Origin: Methanomassiliicoccaceae archaeon UBA404
GTDB taxonomy: Archaea; Thermoplasmatota; Thermoplasmata; Methanomassiliicoccales; Methanomethylophilaceae
Length of the DNA: 64,000 nucleotides
Assembly: GCA_002498605.1 (NCBI GenBank)
Contig: DAHY01000009.1
Span: 22,971-86,970, forward strand
Direction: 5' to 3'
Under the pieces are notes generated by a model. It was not told the DNA's origin. It saw only the letters and a list, made by a program, of their open reading frames with translations, and searched no databases. Of this stretch, positions 2,591 through 26,740 are shown piece by piece (positions within the stretch are counted from its first letter, which is position 1; each line of letters begins with the position of its first letter). Made by a program: the position numbers and the translations under genes.

Positions 2591-3376
2591 GTGGCAATGA
2601 ACGCAGACATCATCGGCGGGTTGTTATCTTCGGCGGTCCGCAATGCGGTTTCAGGAAAGGATACGGCAGTGTCTTTTTCCGGAGGGGTAGATTCGGGTCT
2701 CATTGCCGCCATGGCGACGGAATACACGGAAAACGTAAGATTGTACACTGTGGGTACGGAAGGCGCACATGATGTGCTGAAAGCCGAAGAAGCGGCAAAA
2801 TTATTGGATTTGGAACAGGAACATATACTGCTGACCGAAGACAACATAGAAGGATTGCTGAAGGAAATGATTCATATCTCCGGTACCGAAGATCCGTTGA
2901 CTCTTTCTTTTGAAATTCCCACGTTCTGCGTTACGAAGTTTTGTTCCGAACACAGCATCATCGGCGGCATCGGAGCCGACGAACTTTTCGGAGGATATCA
3001 CAGATACATCGGAATGCCGCCTTCGGAATTCAAAGATGCCAGAAACGAAGATCTGAAAAAATTAATGTCGTACGTCATTCCTCACGAGGATAAAGTTGCC
3101 GATTATTTCGGCAAAACAATTCATCGGCCGTTTGTCGACAGGGATCTTGTTGATGCGGTATTGTCTCTTCCCTGCGAAGAAATACTCCCCTCGGACAAAC
3201 GTCCCCGCAAAGCGATCCTGAAAGAAATCGCGGAAAGCATGAATCTGAACCTGTTGGCCGAAACCGAAAAGAAAGCCGCGCAATACGGTTCCGGGGCAAT
3301 GGGGCTGATAAGGAAGTCGGCAAGGAAAGAAAAGCTGACGGTGGGCGAATACGTCAAATCTTTTTCCGACCGTTGA
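2591..3376 (+). CDS. asparagine-synthetase-like PP-loop ATP pyrophosphatase (synthetase domain only)
   Basis: PP-loop SFSGGVDSG and GADELFGGY, as in the AsnB C-terminal domain. There is no N-terminal glutaminase domain. Start is GTG 2591 or ATG 2597. Confidence 0.7.
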   Translation: MAMNADIIGGLLSSAVRNAVSGKDTAVSFSGGVDSGLIAAMATEYTENVRLYTVGTEGAHDVLKAEEAAKLLDLEQEHILLTEDNIEGLLKEMIHISGTEDPLTLSFEIPTFCVTKFCSEHSIIGGIGADELFGGYHRYIGMPPSEFKDARNEDLKKLMSYVIPHEDKVADYFGKTIHRPFVDRDLVDAVLSLPCEEILPSDKRPRKAILKEIAESMNLNLLAETEKKAAQYGSGAMGLIRKSARKEKLTVGEYVKSFSDR

Positions 3377-4686
3377 CGGCACCGGTAATATACCCTTTGT
3401 ATTATACGGCGTACGTGAACGATTTGGAAACAAAAGAGGATTTTCTCGATTGGTTATACGGATTGACTTCCCAGGGCATAAAACTGGGTTTGGACAATAT
3501 CACGGAACTCCTCGAAAGAATGGGCAATCCCCATAAATCTTTCAAAAGCGTGCATGTGGGCGGAACCGACGGCAAAGGATCCGTCTGTGCCATGGTTTCT
3601 TCGGTGCTGAGGGAAAGCGGAATCAGTACGGGATTGTTCGTTTCCCCGCATATAACGGAATTCAACGAACGGATATCCGTTGACGGAATACAGATTACCG
3701 ATGACGAACTTGCCGAGATGGCGGCCCTTGTCGTTTCGCACGTCCGGGAGATGTCGGACAACGGGAAATACTGCACATTCTTCGAAGTCACCACCGCAAT
3801 AGCTTTTCTTTATTTCAAGAAAAAAGGGGTTGAATACGCCGTTGTCGAAGTCGGAATGGGAGGCAGAGCGGATTCCACCAATGTTCTGATTCCCGAAGTA
3901 TGCGTAATAGGAAACGTAAGTTTGGAACACACCGCATTTCTGGGAAACACCCTGGAAAAGATAGCTTTTGAAAAAGCCGGCATCATAAAACCCGGAGTGC
4001 CCTGCGTGACGATGAACGGCGATGAAGCATTTGCGGTAATCAGAAAAACCGCCGAAGAAAGAAAGTCGCCTCTGATACGCGTGAACAAAGCGGATATAAA
4101 CATTATGAGTCTGGATGAAAAAGGTACTTTTTTTCAATATAAGGGGGAAGACTATCACGTATCCGTTCCCGGAAGATATCAGGCCAAAAATGCATCTTTG
4201 GCCATCGAAGCCGTGTCGATGTTAAGCATATACGGACAAAAATGCAGATGCAACATCCGCAAAGGACTGGAAAAGGTATTTTGGCCCTGCAGACTCCAAA
4301 GAATACCCGGCACGCCGTTTATAATGGACGTAACCCACACCGTGGAAGGATCCGCGCAGATAATATCGGACATCCGGGAAATATACGGCAGTGTGAACGT
4401 TGTGTTCGGAGTCCTCAAAGATAAAAACATAAGGGGCATAGCAGAGAACATTTCCAAAATAGCAAACCGTATAATAGTAACCCGGCCGGAAACCGAAAGA
4501 GCTTCCCCGTCCGAAGAAACAGCCAGGATTTTTTCGGAATTCTTTGAAGACATCATTGTAACCGATAACGTTGAAGAAGCCATGAACAAATCATCGGAAA
4601 TTTTCGGCGATGGATTGATATTGGTTACGGGGTCTTTCTATACAACCGGGGAGGCGATGAAATGGATAAAAAAGACATATCTCTGA
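3373..4686 (+). CDS. folC: folylpolyglutamate synthase / dihydrofolate synthase family (Mur-ligase fold)
   Basis: HVGGTDGKGS P-loop and SPHITEFNERI, typical of FolC. The start is uncertain: TTG 3373 overlapping the upstream stop, or GTG 3415. Confidence 0.85.
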   Translation: MTAPVIYPLYYTAYVNDLETKEDFLDWLYGLTSQGIKLGLDNITELLERMGNPHKSFKSVHVGGTDGKGSVCAMVSSVLRESGISTGLFVSPHITEFNERISVDGIQITDDELAEMAALVVSHVREMSDNGKYCTFFEVTTAIAFLYFKKKGVEYAVVEVGMGGRADSTNVLIPEVCVIGNVSLEHTAFLGNTLEKIAFEKAGIIKPGVPCVTMNGDEAFAVIRKTAEERKSPLIRVNKADINIMSLDEKGTFFQYKGEDYHVSVPGRYQAKNASLAIEAVSMLSIYGQKCRCNIRKGLEKVFWPCRLQRIPGTPFIMDVTHTVEGSAQIISDIREIYGSVNVVFGVLKDKNIRGIAENISKIANRIIVTRPETERASPSEETARIFSEFFEDIIVTDNVEEAMNKSSEIFGDGLILVTGSFYTTGEAMKWIKKTYL

Positions 4687-18349: not shown

Positions 18350-19786
18350 ATGATCTCGAACTTTACTAAATTAGGAATCACGGAAGATGCCGCAAAGGCA
18401 ATGTTGGATATGGGTTGGGAAGAACCCACACCGATTCAGAAAGAGGCCGTCCCCATAGGATTGAAAGGGCGCGATATGTTTGCTCAGGCCCAAACAGGCA
18501 CCGGTAAAACCGGTTGTTACGGTTCCATCATAATCGGAAAAATCGAAGCCGCCCAGAAAGTTCCCCATTCGATAATACTCGTTCCAACCAGAGAACTGGC
18601 GGTACAGGTATCCAAAGAACTGTCCAGACTGTCCAAGTATACGGGTCACGTAGCCGTTCCCATCTACGGCGGAGTCAGCATCGATGCTCAGATCAAGAAG
18701 CTGGACAAAGGAGCGGACATTATCGCGGGCACTCCCGGAAGAGTGAAAGATTTGATGAGACAGGGAGCATTGAACCTTTCTGCCATTGAAGTTGTCGTAC
18801 TTGACGAAGCGGACCGTATGCTGGAAATGGGTTTTATTGAAGACATAGAAGATATTCTGAAGATGATGCCCATCGGAAGACAGACTCTTCTGATGTCGGC
18901 AACAATGCCGGAAGACGTCAAACGTCTTTCTTACGATTATATGAAAAATCCCATTGAAATCAGTGTTTCGATGGATGAAGTCGTTCTGGATCTTACAAAA
19001 CAGTATTACATACCCATCGGACGCCGCAACAAGTCATGGGCCCTGAGCCGAATTCTTGATGCGAACAAATCCAAAGCAATAATTTTCTGTCAGACCAAGA
19101 GAATGGTGGATATGCTGGTGGAACGTCTTGAACGCTACGAGTACAAGGCCGAAGCCATTCACGGCGATATGCCTCAGAACAAGAGAGAAAGAGTCCTCAA
19201 CGAATTCAAGAACTTCCGTGAAGGGGAAGACGATGAGAAACGTACCGTCAGAATCCTTGTTGCCACCGATGTTGCGGCCAGAGGACTCGATGTGGAAGAT
19301 ATTACTTTTGTGATAAACTATGACATGCCCGAAGATGTTGAAACTTATATTCACAGAATCGGCAGAACCGGCCGTGCCGGAAAGGAAGGTACGGCTATTT
19401 CTTTCGTTACCGCGGAAGAAGAGCATCTTATCAAAGAGTTTGAACTGAGGACCGAGATGGTAATCGAAGAGATGGATGTTCCCGGAACCGAAGAAGGCGA
19501 AAAAGACACCATCCGAAGAGTGGTGGACTTCGATCAGGCCGCGGATGTCTTCGGTATGGTTAAGTTCGAAATAAATATCGGTAAAAAAGACGGACTCGGA
19601 AAAGTCGGAATTTCAGACTTTGTGGTCAGGAATGCCAGAATAATGGAGTATGCCATCGGCAATATTGAAATCGGCAACGATTCTTCAATCATCGAGGTTC
19701 ACAAAGATTTCGGCAGAAAGATGACCCAGGACCTTACCAAAGCGAGATTTGACGGGAACAGAGTCAACGTACAGGTAGTACAGTGA
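18350..19786 (+). CDS. DEAD-box RNA helicase with DbpA-like C-terminal RNA-binding domain
   Basis: AQAQTGTGKT, DEAD, SAT and HRIGRTGRAG, plus a C-terminal ~75-aa RRM-like extension. Confidence 0.9.
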   Translation: MISNFTKLGITEDAAKAMLDMGWEEPTPIQKEAVPIGLKGRDMFAQAQTGTGKTGCYGSIIIGKIEAAQKVPHSIILVPTRELAVQVSKELSRLSKYTGHVAVPIYGGVSIDAQIKKLDKGADIIAGTPGRVKDLMRQGALNLSAIEVVVLDEADRMLEMGFIEDIEDILKMMPIGRQTLLMSATMPEDVKRLSYDYMKNPIEISVSMDEVVLDLTKQYYIPIGRRNKSWALSRILDANKSKAIIFCQTKRMVDMLVERLERYEYKAEAIHGDMPQNKRERVLNEFKNFREGEDDEKRTVRILVATDVAARGLDVEDITFVINYDMPEDVETYIHRIGRTGRAGKEGTAISFVTAEEEHLIKEFELRTEMVIEEMDVPGTEEGEKDTIRRVVDFDQAADVFGMVKFEINIGKKDGLGKVGISDFVVRNARIMEYAIGNIEIGNDSSIIEVHKDFGRKMTQDLTKARFDGNRVNVQVVQ

Positions 19787-19824: not shown

Positions 19825-22449
19825 TCAGATACCCAGAACTATCAGAACATTGCCTACCTGCAATGTTTCCACAGCCTTTCCGTCCAATGTAAGACGGGTT
19901 TCCAATTCAAAGAATTCCGGGTCCAACTCATAAACTTCGTCGGCCTTCACAATAACCTTTCCGGATTTCAGTTGTTCCGCAACATCCGAGGGATTCATTT
20001 CGGATATGGCGGCAACAATGCCTTTCGCGGCCGCTTTGAATGCGGGGCCGAGTTTTGCGTGAACCGGTTTGACGCTGACCACTTCTTCGGTGAATTCGGC
20101 GGATTCGGCAACCGTGATATCGGAGGCTTTGGTGGTTTCGGAAATATCGGCGATGGCGTCTTTCAGCAGGGCGGCCTCTGTGCCGACAAATTCCAATGTG
20201 GGTATTTCGGCATTCAGGGGAATCTTCTTGGAAGATTTCCATGCTCTGACGGCCGCAACAACGTCTTTGAGAATTTCTCCGGCGGCTTCAGCCTCCTCGT
20301 CAATCATGATAGGCACAGGCCATTTGGTAAGGTGTATGCTTTTTTCATCTTCGAACTGTCTGAAGATATTCTGATACATCTCTTCTGTCACGTGGGGGAA
20401 CAGAGGCGCAATCATTTTGAGAGAACCGTAGAACACGTTGTACAAAGTGTAAACTACAGCTTCGTCATCGCGGCTCTTTACCATTTCCACATAATGGTCG
20501 GCAAACTCGTGCCAGATGAAAGATTCCAGTATCTTAACAACCCTGTCGAATTGATAATCGTCATAAAACGCACTTACCTCTTTGACAACCTTTGAGAATT
20601 TTGAAAGAATCCATTTATCGGAAACGCGCAACGTATCGCAGGACTCCGACGGTTTGTTTTTCAGGAATCTGGAAACGAACTGTCCCAGATTGAATATCTT
20701 ATTGCAGAATCTTCTTCCGCGGACAACATCGGGTTCTCTGAATGCATGGTCGATACCCAAAGAACAGGTTGCCGCATAATACCTCAATGCGTCGGCTCCG
20801 TATTCTTCCAGTATAGGCACGGGGTCGATGACGTTTCCGACCGAGGAGTGCATGGGAGTTCCGTCCGGCGACATGATGAATCCGTTAATCATAATGTCAT
20901 CCCAGGGTTTCTCGCCGGTCATCTGTTCGGAACGCAATATGGTGTAGAACGCCCAGGTCCGTATAATATCATGGGACTGAGGTCTCATGGACATGGGGTA
21001 CAGCTTCTTGTGAAGTTCCTCATCTCTTTTCCAGTATGTATTATAAAGAGCGGAGCCCGAAGAATCCATCCAGGTATCGAAAACATCGGTGGAACCGATC
21101 AGATTACCGCCGCATTTGGGACATTTTTCGACAGGGGGTTTATCTTCGGTCGGATCGCAGTAGAGCATCCCCTCGGTGGCGCAAACGGCATGATTGCAAT
21201 CTTCGCATTCCCAGATGGGGATGGGGGTTGCAAACACTCTTTGACGGCTGAGAACCCAATCCCATTCCAGCGATTCCACCCAATCCACCAGACGGACTTT
21301 CATAAATTCGGGATGCCAATCGATTTCATCGGCTTTCTTCAAAACTTTTTCTTTGAAGTCCAACGTCTTAAGGAACCATTGAGGAACCTGAAGATATTCT
21401 ATGGGCGTCTTGCATCTCCAGCAAACCGAGAGTTGCTGAGGGTTATCCTTCTGTTCTTTCAGAAGTCCCAGATCTCTCAGGTCATTTATGGATGCGGCTC
21501 TGGCTTCAGTAACAGTGAGTCCCTTGTATTTACCCGCTATTTCGGTCATTCTGCCGGTTTCGTCAATACCTTTCTCCATCGGGAGATGGTATTTCATAAC
21601 CCATTCCAAATCGTCTTTGTCTCCGATGGTACATATCATGACAAATCCGGTACCGTATTTCGGATCTACCTTTTCATCGGCAATGACCTTTACTTTTTTG
21701 TTGAACATGGGCGTAACAAGTTCTTTGCCCACCAAATGGGTCTTTTCCTTGTCATCGGGATGAACGGCAACCACCTGACAGGTGCACAGGAGCTCGGGCC
21801 TTGTGGTGGCAATCAATACGGATTCATCCGAATCCGCAATGCCGAATTTGATAAAGTTGAGTTTGGTGACATTATCGGTGTAGTCCACTTCCGCGTCTGC
21901 AAGTGCGGTCATACATCTGGGACACCAATTAACGGGATAGTTGGCTTTGTAGACCAGGCCTCTGTTGAAGAGTTCGACAAAGGACAGCTGAGTGATTTTT
22001 CTGTAATATGGAGCGTCGGTCTGATAGTAGATGCTGGGATCCATGCTTTCCCCGAGTTTTTCGAAATCCCTGGTCATTTCATCAATGAAGCCGTTGGCAT
22101 ATTCGCTGCAGAGTTTTCGATATTCGCTTCGGGGCAGATCCAGTTTCGTTATGTTGTGCTTTTTCTCCACTTTGACTTCGATGGGAGTACCGTTTACGTC
22201 AAAACATAAAGGGAAGAATACGTTGAAGCCGTTCATTCTCTTGTATCGGGCGGCAAAATCGGATATGGAGTATCCTGTTGCGTGACCCAAATGCATTGAA
22301 CCCGATGTGTACCTTGGGGGATTATCTATGCTGAAGACGGGAGCGTCGGAATCCGGATCAAAACGGTATATTCCCTCGTCCTTCCACATCTTCTGCCAGC
22401 GTCCCTCTATCGAAGAAGAGTCATACTGAGACATTTTGAACGTGGTCAC
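19825..22449 (-). CDS. valS: valyl-tRNA synthetase
   Basis: Class I HIGH motif (SMHLGHATGY), an editing domain, a size (874 aa) typical of archaeal ValRS, and GADALRYY. The KMSKS position reads PMHSS (see findings). Confidence 0.9.
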   Translation of the reverse strand: MTTFKMSQYDSSSIEGRWQKMWKDEGIYRFDPDSDAPVFSIDNPPRYTSGSMHLGHATGYSISDFAARYKRMNGFNVFFPLCFDVNGTPIEVKVEKKHNITKLDLPRSEYRKLCSEYANGFIDEMTRDFEKLGESMDPSIYYQTDAPYYRKITQLSFVELFNRGLVYKANYPVNWCPRCMTALADAEVDYTDNVTKLNFIKFGIADSDESVLIATTRPELLCTCQVVAVHPDDKEKTHLVGKELVTPMFNKKVKVIADEKVDPKYGTGFVMICTIGDKDDLEWVMKYHLPMEKGIDETGRMTEIAGKYKGLTVTEARAASINDLRDLGLLKEQKDNPQQLSVCWRCKTPIEYLQVPQWFLKTLDFKEKVLKKADEIDWHPEFMKVRLVDWVESLEWDWVLSRQRVFATPIPIWECEDCNHAVCATEGMLYCDPTEDKPPVEKCPKCGGNLIGSTDVFDTWMDSSGSALYNTYWKRDEELHKKLYPMSMRPQSHDIIRTWAFYTILRSEQMTGEKPWDDIMINGFIMSPDGTPMHSSVGNVIDPVPILEEYGADALRYYAATCSLGIDHAFREPDVVRGRRFCNKIFNLGQFVSRFLKNKPSESCDTLRVSDKWILSKFSKVVKEVSAFYDDYQFDRVVKILESFIWHEFADHYVEMVKSRDDEAVVYTLYNVFYGSLKMIAPLFPHVTEEMYQNIFRQFEDEKSIHLTKWPVPIMIDEEAEAAGEILKDVVAAVRAWKSSKKIPLNAEIPTLEFVGTEAALLKDAIADISETTKASDITVAESAEFTEEVVSVKPVHAKLGPAFKAAAKGIVAAISEMNPSDVAEQLKSGKVIVKADEVYELDPEFFELETRLTLDGKAVETLQVGNVLIVLGI

Positions 22450-22497
22450 TATAAAAGAAGATAATAAAAAGGTTTGCTGAACAGGTTTACCGTTACG

Positions 22498-23673
22498 TCA
22501 CTTCTTTCGCTGACGGAACTTTACCTTGGTGTCCTTGAGGTCCATTACTGAATCCGTGATTCTCTTCATCAGATTCGAAGTGGTCGTGATAAGGTCCCAA
22601 CCCACCTCCTTGTAACTCATGACCTTGCCCTTGAAGTACAGTCTGGCGGTTATGCTGTACTTGAAGCGTCCGCCGGTATCGTTGTAACGGGACACATGGA
22701 GCATGAGACTCTCGGGGGTGTACACTTTGTTTATTTTGTTTACCTGTTCCTGAATAACGTCATACATGGCACTTCTCAGGTTTTTGTCCTGATCCTGAAG
22801 CCCGCTGATCTGTATGAACATCATTTCTCTTTCCCTGCAGGCGGAAATAACCTCGATAATATCGTACTGGGTCAGTACACCTACCAAGGCACCCCCTTCT
22901 ACTACGGGCAGAGTGGAGATATTGTCTTTGATCATGAGTTCGGCGGCATCCTTTACGGTATCGTCCCAGTTAACGACCGTAGGGGAATGAACGTAAACGG
23001 ATTTTATTGTCACGTTGGCCTTTGTTTTCTTCTCAAAATCACCGATGGTTTTGGTATCATCCTTCCAGATGATGTCTATGATTTCTTTCATGCCTATGAC
23101 GCCGACGACAATATTTTCATCATTGACCACGGGAATGGTCAAAGTATCCAACTCTGTCATGATATCATAAGCATCGGATAACATATCGTTCACGGAAACT
23201 CTCTGAACGGGGTTCGTCATAAGTTCCCATACCTTAATTTCGCCGAGAGCCTTTATTTTCGAGGCAACACCTACAAGCGCGTTCCTGGAAACGATACCGA
23301 CAACTTTCTTACCGGACATTATGGGAAGCTGTCTGCAGTTGTTTGCGGTCATGGCTTCGGCAATCACGGTTATTTCATCTGCGGTTGTCAGAATCGGAAC
23401 TCCTTCAATCAGGTTCTTTACCTTGTTATCCATGTTGGCGCTCTTCTTCTTCAGTACGGACGTGTAACTGACAACTCCCTGATAACTCCCGTTTTCCAAA
23501 ACCGGAATTTCCTGGTAGTTGCTCTTTTTCATAACTTGCAGAACATCAGACAAACGGTCTTCGGGACTGACGGTCGGAAAATTACTGTCCATAATGTCTT
23601 CGACGGAATTAGCGTCGATCTGAGACCTGAGCATGGATAGCCTTCTCGGATCTTCTAGATCTTTCAATACCAT
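22498..23673 (-). CDS. four CBS domains fused to a C-terminal HPF/RaiA (S30AE)-like domain
   Basis: Four CBS repeats span residues ~24-278. Residues 285-391 (MFIQISGLQDQDKNLRSAMYDVIQEQVNKINKVY...DLKDTKVKFRQRKK) follow the HPF sequence pattern. Confidence 0.7.
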   Translation of the reverse strand: MVLKDLEDPRRLSMLRSQIDANSVEDIMDSNFPTVSPEDRLSDVLQVMKKSNYQEIPVLENGSYQGVVSYTSVLKKKSANMDNKVKNLIEGVPILTTADEITVIAEAMTANNCRQLPIMSGKKVVGIVSRNALVGVASKIKALGEIKVWELMTNPVQRVSVNDMLSDAYDIMTELDTLTIPVVNDENIVVGVIGMKEIIDIIWKDDTKTIGDFEKKTKANVTIKSVYVHSPTVVNWDDTVKDAAELMIKDNISTLPVVEGGALVGVLTQYDIIEVISACREREMMFIQISGLQDQDKNLRSAMYDVIQEQVNKINKVYTPESLMLHVSRYNDTGGRFKYSITARLYFKGKVMSYKEVGWDLITTTSNLMKRITDSVMDLKDTKVKFRQRKK

Positions 23674-23752
23674 TGATAAATCCTCAGATATACATCGTGT
23701 TCAATGGCTATAAAACTTAGTTCCGGGGGGCCAGTAAGTCCCCCGGATAATT

Positions 23753-25462
23753 TTAAAGGGTTGAAAATTCTTTTCCGTTGATAAGCTGGCGGATAACTCC
23801 CGCCACATCATCCGCAGGTATGCGTTTCTGATCGCCGGTATCTCTTTCCCTTATCGTGACGGTTCCTTTGTTGGGGCCCTTCAGAGAATCATAGTCGACG
23901 GTAACGCACCACGGGGTGCCCACCTCGTCCATTCTGGCGTATCTTTTGCCGATGGTGCCGGAATCATCGTAATAAGCGGGTGTTTCGGAAGAATGCACAT
24001 CGGCGAATATCTTTTTCGCCAGGACATCCAAGCCGTCCTTGTCCATCAACGGGAAGATGCCTACCTTTATGGGCGCGATTCCGGGTACGAGTTTCATAAT
24101 CGAATAACCACGTTTTTCGTCATTGAAGTAGCTGTGTTCCAACACGGAGTAGAATATCCTGTCCAAACCGTAGGAAGGCTCTATTACATGAGGAATAACG
24201 CGTTTTCCGTTTACTTTCTCCGTTACTTCACGGACTTCGAAATACTCGTCTGTAAGAACGATTCTTTCGCCGTTTATGTTGAGGGTGATTTTGTTGTCGA
24301 AGATGTTGTCTTCGGTTTCGGATTCAAGGGCGGAAGCAATGTCCTTAGCCTTTTCTTTGAAAGCCGGACCCAGTTTTTTGTGATTGGCCACGACCTTTTT
24401 GAAAGTCATCTCCTTGGGTTCGTCGAACATTTCGAAATGAGACAAATCGGCTCCGGAGAACTCCGAATGTCTGGAAAGATCCCAGCATCCTCTGTCGGCA
24501 ATACCGGTGATTTCGGTCCATCCGTACGACAAAAGCACTTCGGCGTCCCAGCAGTCGGCGGCATAGTGCGCCATTTCATCCTTCAGATGCTGTCTGAATC
24601 TGAGTTTTTCGGTATCGATTCCCACTCTTTCCAGGAGTTGTTTGGTAGTGTACACGAAATAAGCCAGTACGGGATTCGCGATGACTCCTTTATCCACAGC
24701 CTCAGCCACGGTCATCGTAACTGTTTTATCGGTGTCGTTGGGCAGAAGCGTAAGTTCACCGTTCTGCACTTCCGAGAAACGGGGCCAGCTCTTGTCTTCG
24801 GGATTTACAAACAATTCAACTTCCATCATGTTGAATTCTCTCATCCGTATCATTCCCTGGCGGGGAGAAATCTCATTTCTGTATCCCCTGCCGGTCTGAA
24901 TAACGCCGAGAGGCAATTTTTCACGGTTGTATCTGTACAGATTCTGGAAGTTGACGAATATTCCCTGGGCGGTTTCCGGTCTCAGATACCCGATTCTTGA
25001 AGAACCGGGACCGATGGTGGTTTTGAACATAAGATTGAAATCTTCGATCTTGCCGAGTTCTCCGCCGCATTCGGGACATTTTATGTTAAAGTCCCTGAAG
25101 GCTTTTTCCAATTCGGCGGGGCTCATGGTATCGGGATTTTCACAAAAATTCCCTACGAGATGATCCGCTCTGAAAGGAAGCTGGCACTCTGTACAGTTGA
25201 CCATATAATCGGAGAACTGTTCAACATGTCCCGAAGCTTTGAAGACATCTTCCGGGTTGATGGTTTCCGAATCGATTTCGATGAAACCCTCACGTACTTT
25301 GTAGATGTTTCTCCAGGCTTCAAGGATGTTGTTCCTCATGGAGGTTCCAAGAGGTCCGTAATCGAACATCCCGGCAACTCCGCCGTAAAGCTCGAATGAA
25401 GGCCAGATATACCCTCTGCGTTTACAGACGGACATCAATTCTGTACTGATATCTTTACTCAT
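23753..25462 (-). CDS. glyS: glycyl-tRNA synthetase (archaeal/eukaryal dimeric type)
   Basis: RRGYIWPSFELYGG..G..DYGPLG N-terminus, class II motifs, and a C-terminal anticodon-binding domain. The start is Met at 25462 (MSKDIS) or 25474. Confidence 0.9.
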   Translation of the reverse strand: MSKDISTELMSVCKRRGYIWPSFELYGGVAGMFDYGPLGTSMRNNILEAWRNIYKVREGFIEIDSETINPEDVFKASGHVEQFSDYMVNCTECQLPFRADHLVGNFCENPDTMSPAELEKAFRDFNIKCPECGGELGKIEDFNLMFKTTIGPGSSRIGYLRPETAQGIFVNFQNLYRYNREKLPLGVIQTGRGYRNEISPRQGMIRMREFNMMEVELFVNPEDKSWPRFSEVQNGELTLLPNDTDKTVTMTVAEAVDKGVIANPVLAYFVYTTKQLLERVGIDTEKLRFRQHLKDEMAHYAADCWDAEVLLSYGWTEITGIADRGCWDLSRHSEFSGADLSHFEMFDEPKEMTFKKVVANHKKLGPAFKEKAKDIASALESETEDNIFDNKITLNINGERIVLTDEYFEVREVTEKVNGKRVIPHVIEPSYGLDRIFYSVLEHSYFNDEKRGYSIMKLVPGIAPIKVGIFPLMDKDGLDVLAKKIFADVHSSETPAYYDDSGTIGKRYARMDEVGTPWCVTVDYDSLKGPNKGTVTIRERDTGDQKRIPADDVAGVIRQLINGKEFSTL

Positions 25463-26300
25463 TTGAATTACCAATCAGGGCTATGAGTATATCCACGTCG
25501 TAAACCATTCCGACAAGTTCGTCTTTGGATCCTCTTACGGGGATCTGTCCGAAGTCATGAAGCTTCATAAGCCTGGCAACTTCCGATATGGATGTTTTCT
25601 TGTACACCGTTATCGGGTCCTTGATCATGAAATCACTGACCTCTTTGTCTTCGTTGAGATACTTGTCGGTTGCCGTGTAGAACAGAGGCAGAACGTTTCT
25701 GTATCCTGCGAGGGTGGTGTCTTCTATTCCGAGAATCTGCATTGCTTCCGGATCTCCGGCCTGATCGCTGAAAAGGTCACGGTCGGTTATGATGCCGGTA
25801 AGATTTCCGACGCTGTCCAATACAGGCATCGCGGGAACGTCACTGAGCCTCATTGCGGGAATCGTGTATGAGAGGGGTTCATGTTCCCAGGCGGTCACAC
25901 AAGTAATCTTGATTACTTCCTCCGCAGTGATTTTGCTCTTAAGGGCTCTGACATCGTCAAGCAAATCCGTGGGGGTTATGATACCGACTAGTTTTCCGTC
26001 TTCGGTGACGGGAAGTCTGTGAAATCTCTCCCTGTAGAAAATTTCCGCCGCTTCGCGAACAGTGGTTTCGGTGCTCACGGATACGGGGTCTTTTTTCATG
26101 ATGAGAGACAGTTGGTCCTCCTCGAAGTTGTTGAATATATCTTTCCTGGATACAACCCCGACAAGTCTTCCGTCGGATCCGCGTATTACAGGGAGTCCGG
26201 TCAGATCGTTCCTGACCATTACATTGATTGCTTCATTTCTTGTTCCCGGCACCTCAGCTACAATGGGTGCCAGTGTCATAATCTCCGATACTCTTTTCAT
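25455..26300 (-). CDS. four-CBS-domain protein
   Basis: Four CBS repeats (for example GLPVIRGSDGRLVGVVSRKDI and RLPVTEDGKLVGIITPTDL). The stop overlaps the glyS start. Confidence 0.8.
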   Translation of the reverse strand: MKRVSEIMTLAPIVAEVPGTRNEAINVMVRNDLTGLPVIRGSDGRLVGVVSRKDIFNNFEEDQLSLIMKKDPVSVSTETTVREAAEIFYRERFHRLPVTEDGKLVGIITPTDLLDDVRALKSKITAEEVIKITCVTAWEHEPLSYTIPAMRLSDVPAMPVLDSVGNLTGIITDRDLFSDQAGDPEAMQILGIEDTTLAGYRNVLPLFYTATDKYLNEDKEVSDFMIKDPITVYKKTSISEVARLMKLHDFGQIPVRGSKDELVGMVYDVDILIALIGNSNE

Positions 26301-26740
26301 TTCTTATCAGCCTCAGGCGATCTAACCGTAATTACCGGGCGTTTGGAAGACCGGACAACTTTATCGGCTACGCTTCCCATAAGAAGTTTTGAAACACCCG
26401 ACCTTCCGAGTGTACCCAAGACTACCACGTCATGGTTTTCCGATTCTTCGAGAATAACCTTTATCGGAATACCTTCCGCCAATTTTTTCTCCACTTTGAC
26501 TCCGTATTCCCTGCCGAGTTCTTCCACGTAACCGAGAGCGACTTTGCCTTCGTTTTCCAGTGTGTGGTAAACGTTCATTACCGCAGTGTCCATCGGTATG
26601 TTTCTGAATATTGTCTGGTCGACAACATAAAGGGCGGTGACGACACCTCCGCTGAGTTTTGCAAGCTCCAGAGCAGTCCTCACGGCCGCCTTGGTATATT
26701 CACTTCCGTCCGTCGGTACTAGAATCTTATCAAAAGCCAT
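26297..26740 (-). CDS. universal stress protein (UspA family)
   Basis: ILVPTDGSE...VVLGTLGRSGVSKLLMGSVADKV ATP-binding motif. It overlaps the downstream CBS gene start by 4 nt. Confidence 0.85.
   Translation of the reverse strand: MAFDKILVPTDGSEYTKAAVRTALELAKLSGGVVTALYVVDQTIFRNIPMDTAVMNVYHTLENEGKVALGYVEELGREYGVKVEKKLAEGIPIKVILEESENHDVVVLGTLGRSGVSKLLMGSVADKVVRSSKRPVITVRSPEADKK

Follow-up and report, generated by a model that had tools for sequence, protein, structure and literature searches.

Does the gene between valS and glyS in Methanomassiliicoccaceae archaeon UBA404 encode a factor that silences ribosomes, and does it belong to a family that is already known? The question was raised by an initial annotation of a 64,000-nucleotide stretch of DNA (hereafter the window; GenBank assembly GCA_002498605.1, contig DAHY01000009.1, positions 22,971 to 86,970 of the forward strand), which proposed that a protein with four CBS repeats and a C-terminal domain resembling bacterial HPF/RaiA (S30AE) is a candidate adenylate-sensing ribosome hibernation factor. 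We computed the architecture and fold of this protein, its homology to bacterial HPF and to the archaeal hibernation factor HibA, and its loop, insertions, tail, and fourth CBS motif. Its membership in the HibA/AHA family is near certain, and we estimate a probability of about 0.88 that the gene is the Methanomethylophilaceae orthologue of HibA, also named AHA.

Fusions of CBS and HPF domains are already known as a family, which was described experimentally in 2025-2026 and has been surveyed across Archaea. HibA is Pyrococcus abyssi PAB0961 (PDB 9SR9-9SRF; Madru et al., Nat Commun 2026, PMC13324472) and AHA is Haloferax volcanii HVO_2384 (Souza et al., bioRxiv 2026, PMC12934967), and the two form one family in which a CBS tetrad is fused to a C-terminal HPF/RaiA domain. 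According to the cryo-electron microscopy (cryo-EM) structures in both reports, the HPF domain spans the A and P sites in the mRNA/tRNA channel of the 30S subunit, and the CBS module is bound to the 50S subunit, where a long loop of CBS3 can enter the peptidyl-transferase centre (PTC). Deletion mutants recover more slowly from stationary phase and have depleted ribosomes (PMC13324472, PMC12934967), and inhibition of translation in vitro has been shown for HibA/AHA (PMC13324472 sections 6-12; PMC12934967 sections 6 and 8). The members for which 70S binding, translation inhibition, and ribosome preservation have been reported are HibA of P. abyssi and T. barophilus and AHA of Hfx. volcanii only (PMC13324472, PMC12934967). 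HibA is present in 47% of archaeal genomes (PMC13324472), and the order Methanomassiliicoccales is explicitly covered by the AHA survey because a protein of Methanomassiliicoccales archaeon RumEn M2 was among its seed queries (PMC12934967). When we looked for the published seed A0A0Q4BAF9 in our cluster accession lists, no UniProt accession was found in them.

The gene in the window is a 391-aa open reading frame plus stop codon that runs from ATG to TGA at positions 22498-23673 of the minus strand, on which all features described below lie unless otherwise stated. A homologue search with the encoded protein returned 648 proteins at E<=1e-5, which argues that this is a genuine gene and not a chance reading frame. 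The nearest of these are also 391 aa long and come from metagenome-assembled genomes of Candidatus Methanomethylophilaceae, with identities of 54-86%. Among solved structures, the full-length protein is most similar in sequence to 9sr9_H, which is P. abyssi HibA (phmmer, E=2.1e-17, residues 24-365 of the query against 6-357). The proposal of a ribosome hibernation factor thereby gains a homologue in a family whose activity has been shown experimentally.

Because the Pfam matches of relatives, profile links to solved structures, and the predicted fold all agree, we identify the C-terminal domain (residues 285-382, positions 22528-22821) as an HPF/RaiA (S30AE) domain. The initial annotation had suggested a comparison with the Pfam family PF02482, which is matched by relatives of the protein, though not by its own segment (see below). 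The C-terminal domains of eight of 14 close relatives match PF02482, one of them passing the gathering score (a 54%-identical relative reaches 26.7 bits against a cut-off of 23.7), as do 38 of 48 diverse family members at E<=0.01. We built two profiles, a lineage-only profile from the C-terminal domains of the 14 close relatives (A1) and a broader one of 48 sequences seeded on the window domain (A3). An exhaustive search of 1.84 billion protein representatives with A1 gave 296 clusters; among the best 149 matches, 89 were proteins 340-430 aa in length that carry the domain at their very C-terminal end, and 26 were short proteins of no more than 140 aa. A second, word-indexed homologue search with A1 recovered fragments of the same lineage only. 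Against the PDB, A3 matched P. abyssi HibA at residues 274-379 (E=4.4e-8). It also aligned along the entire domain with over 20 chains of bacterial HPF/RaiA/YfiA, among them E. coli HPF (9.3e-5) and RaiA (2.4e-3). Profile-profile alignment by hhalign with four solved bacterial HPF/RaiA sequences gave a probability of 97.6% for A3 (E=3.8e-12, 92 columns, window residues 285-386) and 76% for A1 (E=2.3e-5). In PDB 9l96_a (also 9l98, 9l9c, and 9l9v), a 406-aa chain named “CBS domain-containing protein” forms part of a large complex. The HibA C-terminal profile aligns with this chain at residues 287-390 (E=0.0026), and the complex is probably another HibA-family ribosome complex. A literature search for PDB 9L96 found no associated paper.

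The structural models point in the same direction. The 107-aa segment singled out in the initial annotation corresponds exactly to residues 285-391, and the order of strands and helices that it had predicted there was recovered in both of our AlphaFold models. In the full-length model, the domain consists of a strand at 286-290, a helix at 294-315, strands at 322-331, 337-347, and 350-358, and a helix at 361-382, followed by a disordered tail at 381-391. Because CBS tetrads dominated the Foldseek matches of the full-length model, and because the 9SR9 entries for HibA are missing from the Foldseek PDB library, which reaches 8 April 2026, the C-terminal domain was also modelled alone. This domain-only model has a predicted local distance difference test score (pLDDT) of 89.3, and its best 26 Foldseek matches are all HPF, RaiA/protein Y, plastid pY, or RafH, bacterial or plastid proteins with E-values of 1.6e-6 to 2.8e-3 and TM scores of 0.6-0.75. 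Similarity to S30AE in the C-terminal ~105 residues is therefore found in both profiles and fold, as had been predicted. The window protein and P. abyssi HibA also share residues in two places where bacterial HPFs are gapped, by three columns in the beta1-alpha1 loop and by seven columns in the beta2-beta3 hairpin. Within close relatives, 35 columns of the domain are invariant. The domain is connected to the CBS module by a linker of 8 aa, the same as the median of aligned family representatives, and it ends in a basic tail (KVKFRQRKK, residues 383-391, positions 22501-22527) that is disordered in the model; the last 15 residues carry a net charge of +5, compared with a family median of +4.

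The N-terminal part of the protein is a CBS tetrad (residues 24-278, positions 22840-23604), by homology the putative module for binding the 50S subunit and adenine nucleotides. The four repeats that had been read from the sequence over this range were confirmed by Pfam, in which PF00571 matches four stretches (E=1.3e-38), the first at residues 24-76, and four CBS units are visible in the full-length AlphaFold2 model. This module is acidic, with a net charge of -11, and the HPF domain is basic, with a net charge of +9 over residues 285-382. The closest structure to the CBS module by Foldseek with the full-length model is the ribosome-bound SriA/SriB chain 9znf_4 of M. acetivorans (E=3.5e-21), followed by AMP-bound SSO3205, MJ1225, SriD, AMPK-gamma, and Dri (the latter at ranks 9 and 13). 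After CBS3 comes an extended loop (residues 203-222, positions 23008-23067) equivalent to the “PTC loop” of HibA and “loop 3” of AHA, which aligns with loop 190-207 of P. abyssi HibA and is 27 aa long here; the P. abyssi loop has 30 aa, and the median across the family is 29. Residues W203, K208, G211, D212, and K215 are kept in relatives, including the conserved central G-D, and the loop is predicted to be disordered (pLDDT 52-60 in the full-length model). The ribose-phosphate motif of CBS4 is canonical (G265-V-L-T-Q-Y-D271, consensus G-h-h-T-x-x-D, positions 22861-22881), and across the family its T/S is found in 79 of 91 members and its D in 76 of 91. The corresponding CBS3 motif, GVIGMKE, is non-canonical, with a G in the place of T/S, a residue that more family members have there than any other (30 of 91). 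The length of the PTC loop, the CBS4 motif, and the charge of the tail all fall inside the family range.

A single feature was found to be specific to the lineage, an N-terminal extension of ~23 aa (residues 1-23, positions 23605-23673) that is conserved and predicted to be helical; the full-length model places helices at residues 4-7 and 9-20. Across the family, a median of 8 aa precedes CBS1, and the extension is absent from P. abyssi HibA. An identical protein in the public record P0001 is 378 aa long and starts at M14. Residues 1-13 are kept among relatives, with M1 and L6 invariant, and because of this conservation the sequence comparison favours the ATG at 23673 over M14 as the start codon; for the same reason, the start in P0001 was probably mis-called. 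The public record of a 257-aa fragment of the archaeal HibA lineage, P0299 (NCA74238.1, in the cluster of P0012), is labelled “Gammaproteobacteria bacterium” at NCBI and most likely represents a mis-binned contig.

How such a protein would act can be proposed from its homologues P. abyssi HibA and Hfx. volcanii AHA, whose cryo-EM structures are solved, and by this analogy we infer that the window protein binds ribosomes and nucleotides and inhibits translation. The basic HPF/RaiA-type domain would bind the mRNA/tRNA channel of the 30S subunit over the A and P sites, with the lysine- and arginine-rich tail directed to the mRNA exit channel, and together they would block decoding and the mRNA channel. 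The acidic CBS tetrad would dock on the 50S subunit and fill the tRNA space, and the post-CBS3 loop could insert at the peptidyl-transferase centre. In this way an idle 70S ribosome would be clamped and protected, and tRNA and mRNA would be kept out. An adenine nucleotide would be bound at CBS3/CBS4, an interface that by analogy probably accepts AMP, ADP, or ATP. The CBS module of HibA binds AMP with a dissociation constant of 12 μM, in the order AMP > ADP > ATP (PMC13324472), two AMP molecules were seen in AHA (PMC12934967), and the related ARC factors are reportedly released by ATP (bioRxiv 10.64898/2026.01.19.700304). Gating of silencing by energy charge, as envisaged in the initial annotation, is hypothetical even for the characterised members.

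The genes around hibA are arranged as the initial annotation had described. Downstream is valS (19825-22449) and upstream is glyS (23753-25474), preceded by a 281-aa four-CBS protein (25455-26300) and, next to it, a Usp protein of 147 aa (26297-26740). The genes for the Usp protein and the CBS tetrad overlap each other and glyS, giving an operon-like arrangement directly upstream of hibA (25455-26740). The block of Usp, 281-aa CBS tetrad, glyS, and hibA is kept in the relative GCA_964306465.1, whose HibA is 56% identical, with valS not downstream of hibA there; in L001, the locus of this relative, the Usp and CBS tetrad genes lie at 2850-4136. We considered whether the 281-aa neighbour might be a Sri-type factor and rejected this, as it is HhpR/PH1780-like over its full length: it matches HhpR NF053603 at positions 2-279 of 282 (E=4e-37, below cut-off) and PH1780 (2yzq_A) from end to end (E=9e-32), which by sequence places it in the CM-3 family. 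CM-3 is reported not to exclude HibA (PMC13324472 section 11), and because the neighbour belongs to CM-3, its co-occurrence with hibA is compatible with the published exclusion between HibA and Sri/CM proteins. Within the window, no CBS protein besides this neighbour, no second HPF domain, and no sri-type operon was found. It is conceivable, though unlikely, that hibA is part of a conserved stress module (Usp, HhpR-like CBS regulator, glyS, and hibA) in which the CM-3-type CBS protein and/or Usp controls the expression or activity of HibA, and in which the 23-aa N-terminal helix and the non-canonical CBS3 provide a distinct partner contact or nucleotide stoichiometry. HibA of this lineage would then be a regulatory variant of a known factor and not a plain orthologue.

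Several elements flank the coding sequence. The TATA-like octamer TTTTATAG (23708-23715) lies ~38 nt upstream of the ATG and is a candidate promoter for hibA, and the 56%-identical relative has a TTATATG element at a similar distance; the element noted in the initial annotation is therefore present and consistent with an own promoter, though it does not prove one. A Shine-Dalgarno-like GAGGA (23681-23685) is found 8 nt before the ATG, with GAGGTG at the equivalent place in L001. Right after the glyS stop codon, between glyS and hibA, is a GC-rich hairpin (23722-23747) of -18.5 kcal/mol (z=-3.75; none of 200 shuffled sequences reached this stability), which may be a transcript-end or processing signal; an analogous hairpin lies at the same place in L001 (5850-5865). 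The octamer TTTTATAG recurs at 22449-22456 just upstream of an ATG of valS at 22434, and the mechanically called valS start, a GTG at 22449, falls within it. From the sequence, the true valS start is probably the ATG at 22434, giving 869 aa as called in L003, and the valS mRNA would therefore be near-leaderless. Beyond valS, a DEAD-box RNA helicase (18350-19786, plus strand) is DbpA-like (NF008744, E=1.7e-118, positions 4-459 of 460, below cut-off), and the PF03880 DbpA domain was found in the L003 helicase. DbpA-type helicases are specific for 23S rRNA in bacteria.

Some of our results weigh against the reading of this gene as hibA. Pairwise BLASTP with P. abyssi HibA spans the CBS part only, at 25% identity. 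Neither the window protein nor its own C-terminal segment matches PF02482 in Pfam even at E<=10, the C-terminal 107 aa have no S30AE match in NCBIfam, and these direct scans gave just sub-threshold DUF3888 noise; the link of the window copy to PF02482 is consequently transitive and structural only. A HMMER search of the PDB with the lineage profile A1 gave nothing relevant. The non-canonical CBS3 motif makes it uncertain how many nucleotides the protein would bind. The energy-gated step is unproven because AMP and ATP left the ribosome binding and occupancy of P. abyssi HibA unchanged in vitro (PMC13324472 section 9).

Other explanations were weighed against HibA-type hibernation. Thermococcales pull-downs found HibA (Pab0961/TK1186) together with DNA replication and recombination proteins, and the authors suggest that it is a sequestering partner under the control of the ATP/AMP ratio (PMC13324472 Discussion). 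A HibA-family protein might accordingly have its main role elsewhere, in the nucleotide-dependent partnering or sequestering of, for example, replication or recombination machineries, with ribosome binding being secondary. We consider this very unlikely, given that HibA is bound to ~75% of the hibernating-like 70S particles from stressed P. abyssi, that deletions in T. barophilus and Hfx. volcanii affect ribosome pools and recovery (PMC13324472, PMC12934967), and that the window protein retains the PTC loop, HPF domain, and basic tail.

Less likely again is a metabolic or transcriptional regulator built on a CBS tetrad, either HhpR/CM-3-like or MJ1225/AMPK-gamma-like, whose C-terminal part would be a generic alpha/beta module (e.g., RNA- or ligand-binding) unrelated to the ribosome. 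HibA, and not HhpR, is the best full-length sequence match, and the partial match to NCBIfam HhpR (NF053603, E=4e-10, residues 39-198) has to be set against the full-length match of the 281-aa neighbour, which is the true HhpR-like protein here. CBS tetrads do serve many functions, and the module is structurally like MJ1225, SSO3205, and AMPK-gamma. A few proteins with double-stranded RNA-binding domains also appear among the weak Foldseek matches of the C-terminal domain (ranks 38-46, E>0.01), but this domain fits HPF/RaiA by fold, by profile, and by the Pfam matches of relatives. The least probable of these alternatives is a small- or large-subunit CBS factor of the Sri/ARC type, in which the CBS tetrad alone works and the C-terminal domain is dispensable. 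The structural closeness of the module to 9znf_4 speaks for it, as does the view of both papers that the CBS module of HibA/AHA descends from an ancestor resembling SriA/CM-5 (PMC13324472, PMC12934967). A dispensable domain sits poorly, however, with the strong conservation of its 35 invariant columns, with its C-terminal position in 89 of the 149 best family representatives, and with its role as the constant 30S anchor across HibA states (PMC13324472 section 7), and the window holds neither a sri-type operon nor a further CBS tetrad besides the HhpR-like neighbour.

The identification of the gene as hibA has a practical consequence. The initial annotation had remarked that HPF is not a standard archaeal annotation, which is true of databases, where the window protein and all of its relatives are labelled “CBS domain-containing protein”, but not of the literature, in which HibA and AHA are now published. 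Because the public labels have stayed as they are, the gene can be re-annotated as hibA/AHA. This re-annotation concerns gut- and rumen-associated methanogens of the Methanomethylophilaceae, for which dormancy and recovery are relevant to persistence in hosts. A reading from sequence alone independently recovered the CBS-HPF fusion logic of a widespread and recently discovered archaeal hibernation system; conceptually, nothing is new beyond the 2025-2026 papers, and the remaining value lies in annotation.

In comparison with known systems, the window protein most closely resembles HibA/AHA, with which it shares the two-module architecture and size (391 aa compared with 392 aa in P. abyssi), a CBS tetrad with an extended post-CBS3 loop, whose insertion into the PTC would follow by analogy, and an HPF/RaiA domain at the C-terminus that has both archaeal insertions and is followed by a basic tail. 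It differs in its identity of only ~25%, over the CBS module, in the conserved ~23-aa N-terminal helix that P. abyssi HibA lacks, and in its CBS3 ribose motif, GVIGMKE instead of GLVTLHD. Its match to the HhpR/CM-3 family NF053603 is only partial, in contrast to that of its neighbour. With bacterial and plastid HPF/RaiA proteins (YfiA, protein Y, PSRP1; PF02482 Ribosomal_S30AE) it shares profile-level homology across the whole domain and, by homology, presumably the 30S A/P-site binding position. Bacterial HPF/RaiA domains are standalone or joined to a long-HPF dimerisation domain, whereas the window domain is C-terminal to a CBS tetrad, has a beta1-alpha1 loop longer by 3 aa and a beta2-beta3 hairpin longer by 7 aa, and has diverged so far that by itself it falls short of the Pfam threshold. 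SriA-D of Methanosarcina acetivorans (PMC13454478) and ARC-A/P of Methanolobus (bioRxiv 10.64898/2026.01.19.700304) are likewise CBS-tetrad hibernation factors, but they are standalone tetrads without an HPF domain, operon-encoded and binding as tandem pairs, whereas here HPF is fused. The closeness of the window tetrad to the SriA/SriB chain fits the published origin of the HibA/AHA tetrad from a SriA/CM-5-like large-subunit binder. Dri of Pyrobaculum calidifontis (PDB 9E6Q/9E7F) is also a CBS-tetrad factor, one that spans the two subunits and reaches into the PTC with a loop (PMC12934967 section 8); in Dri, which is confined to Thermoproteota, the CBS module on the 50S subunit is rotated by ~180 degrees and the 30S side is held by a second CBS tetrad, a position that the HPF domain would take in the window protein.

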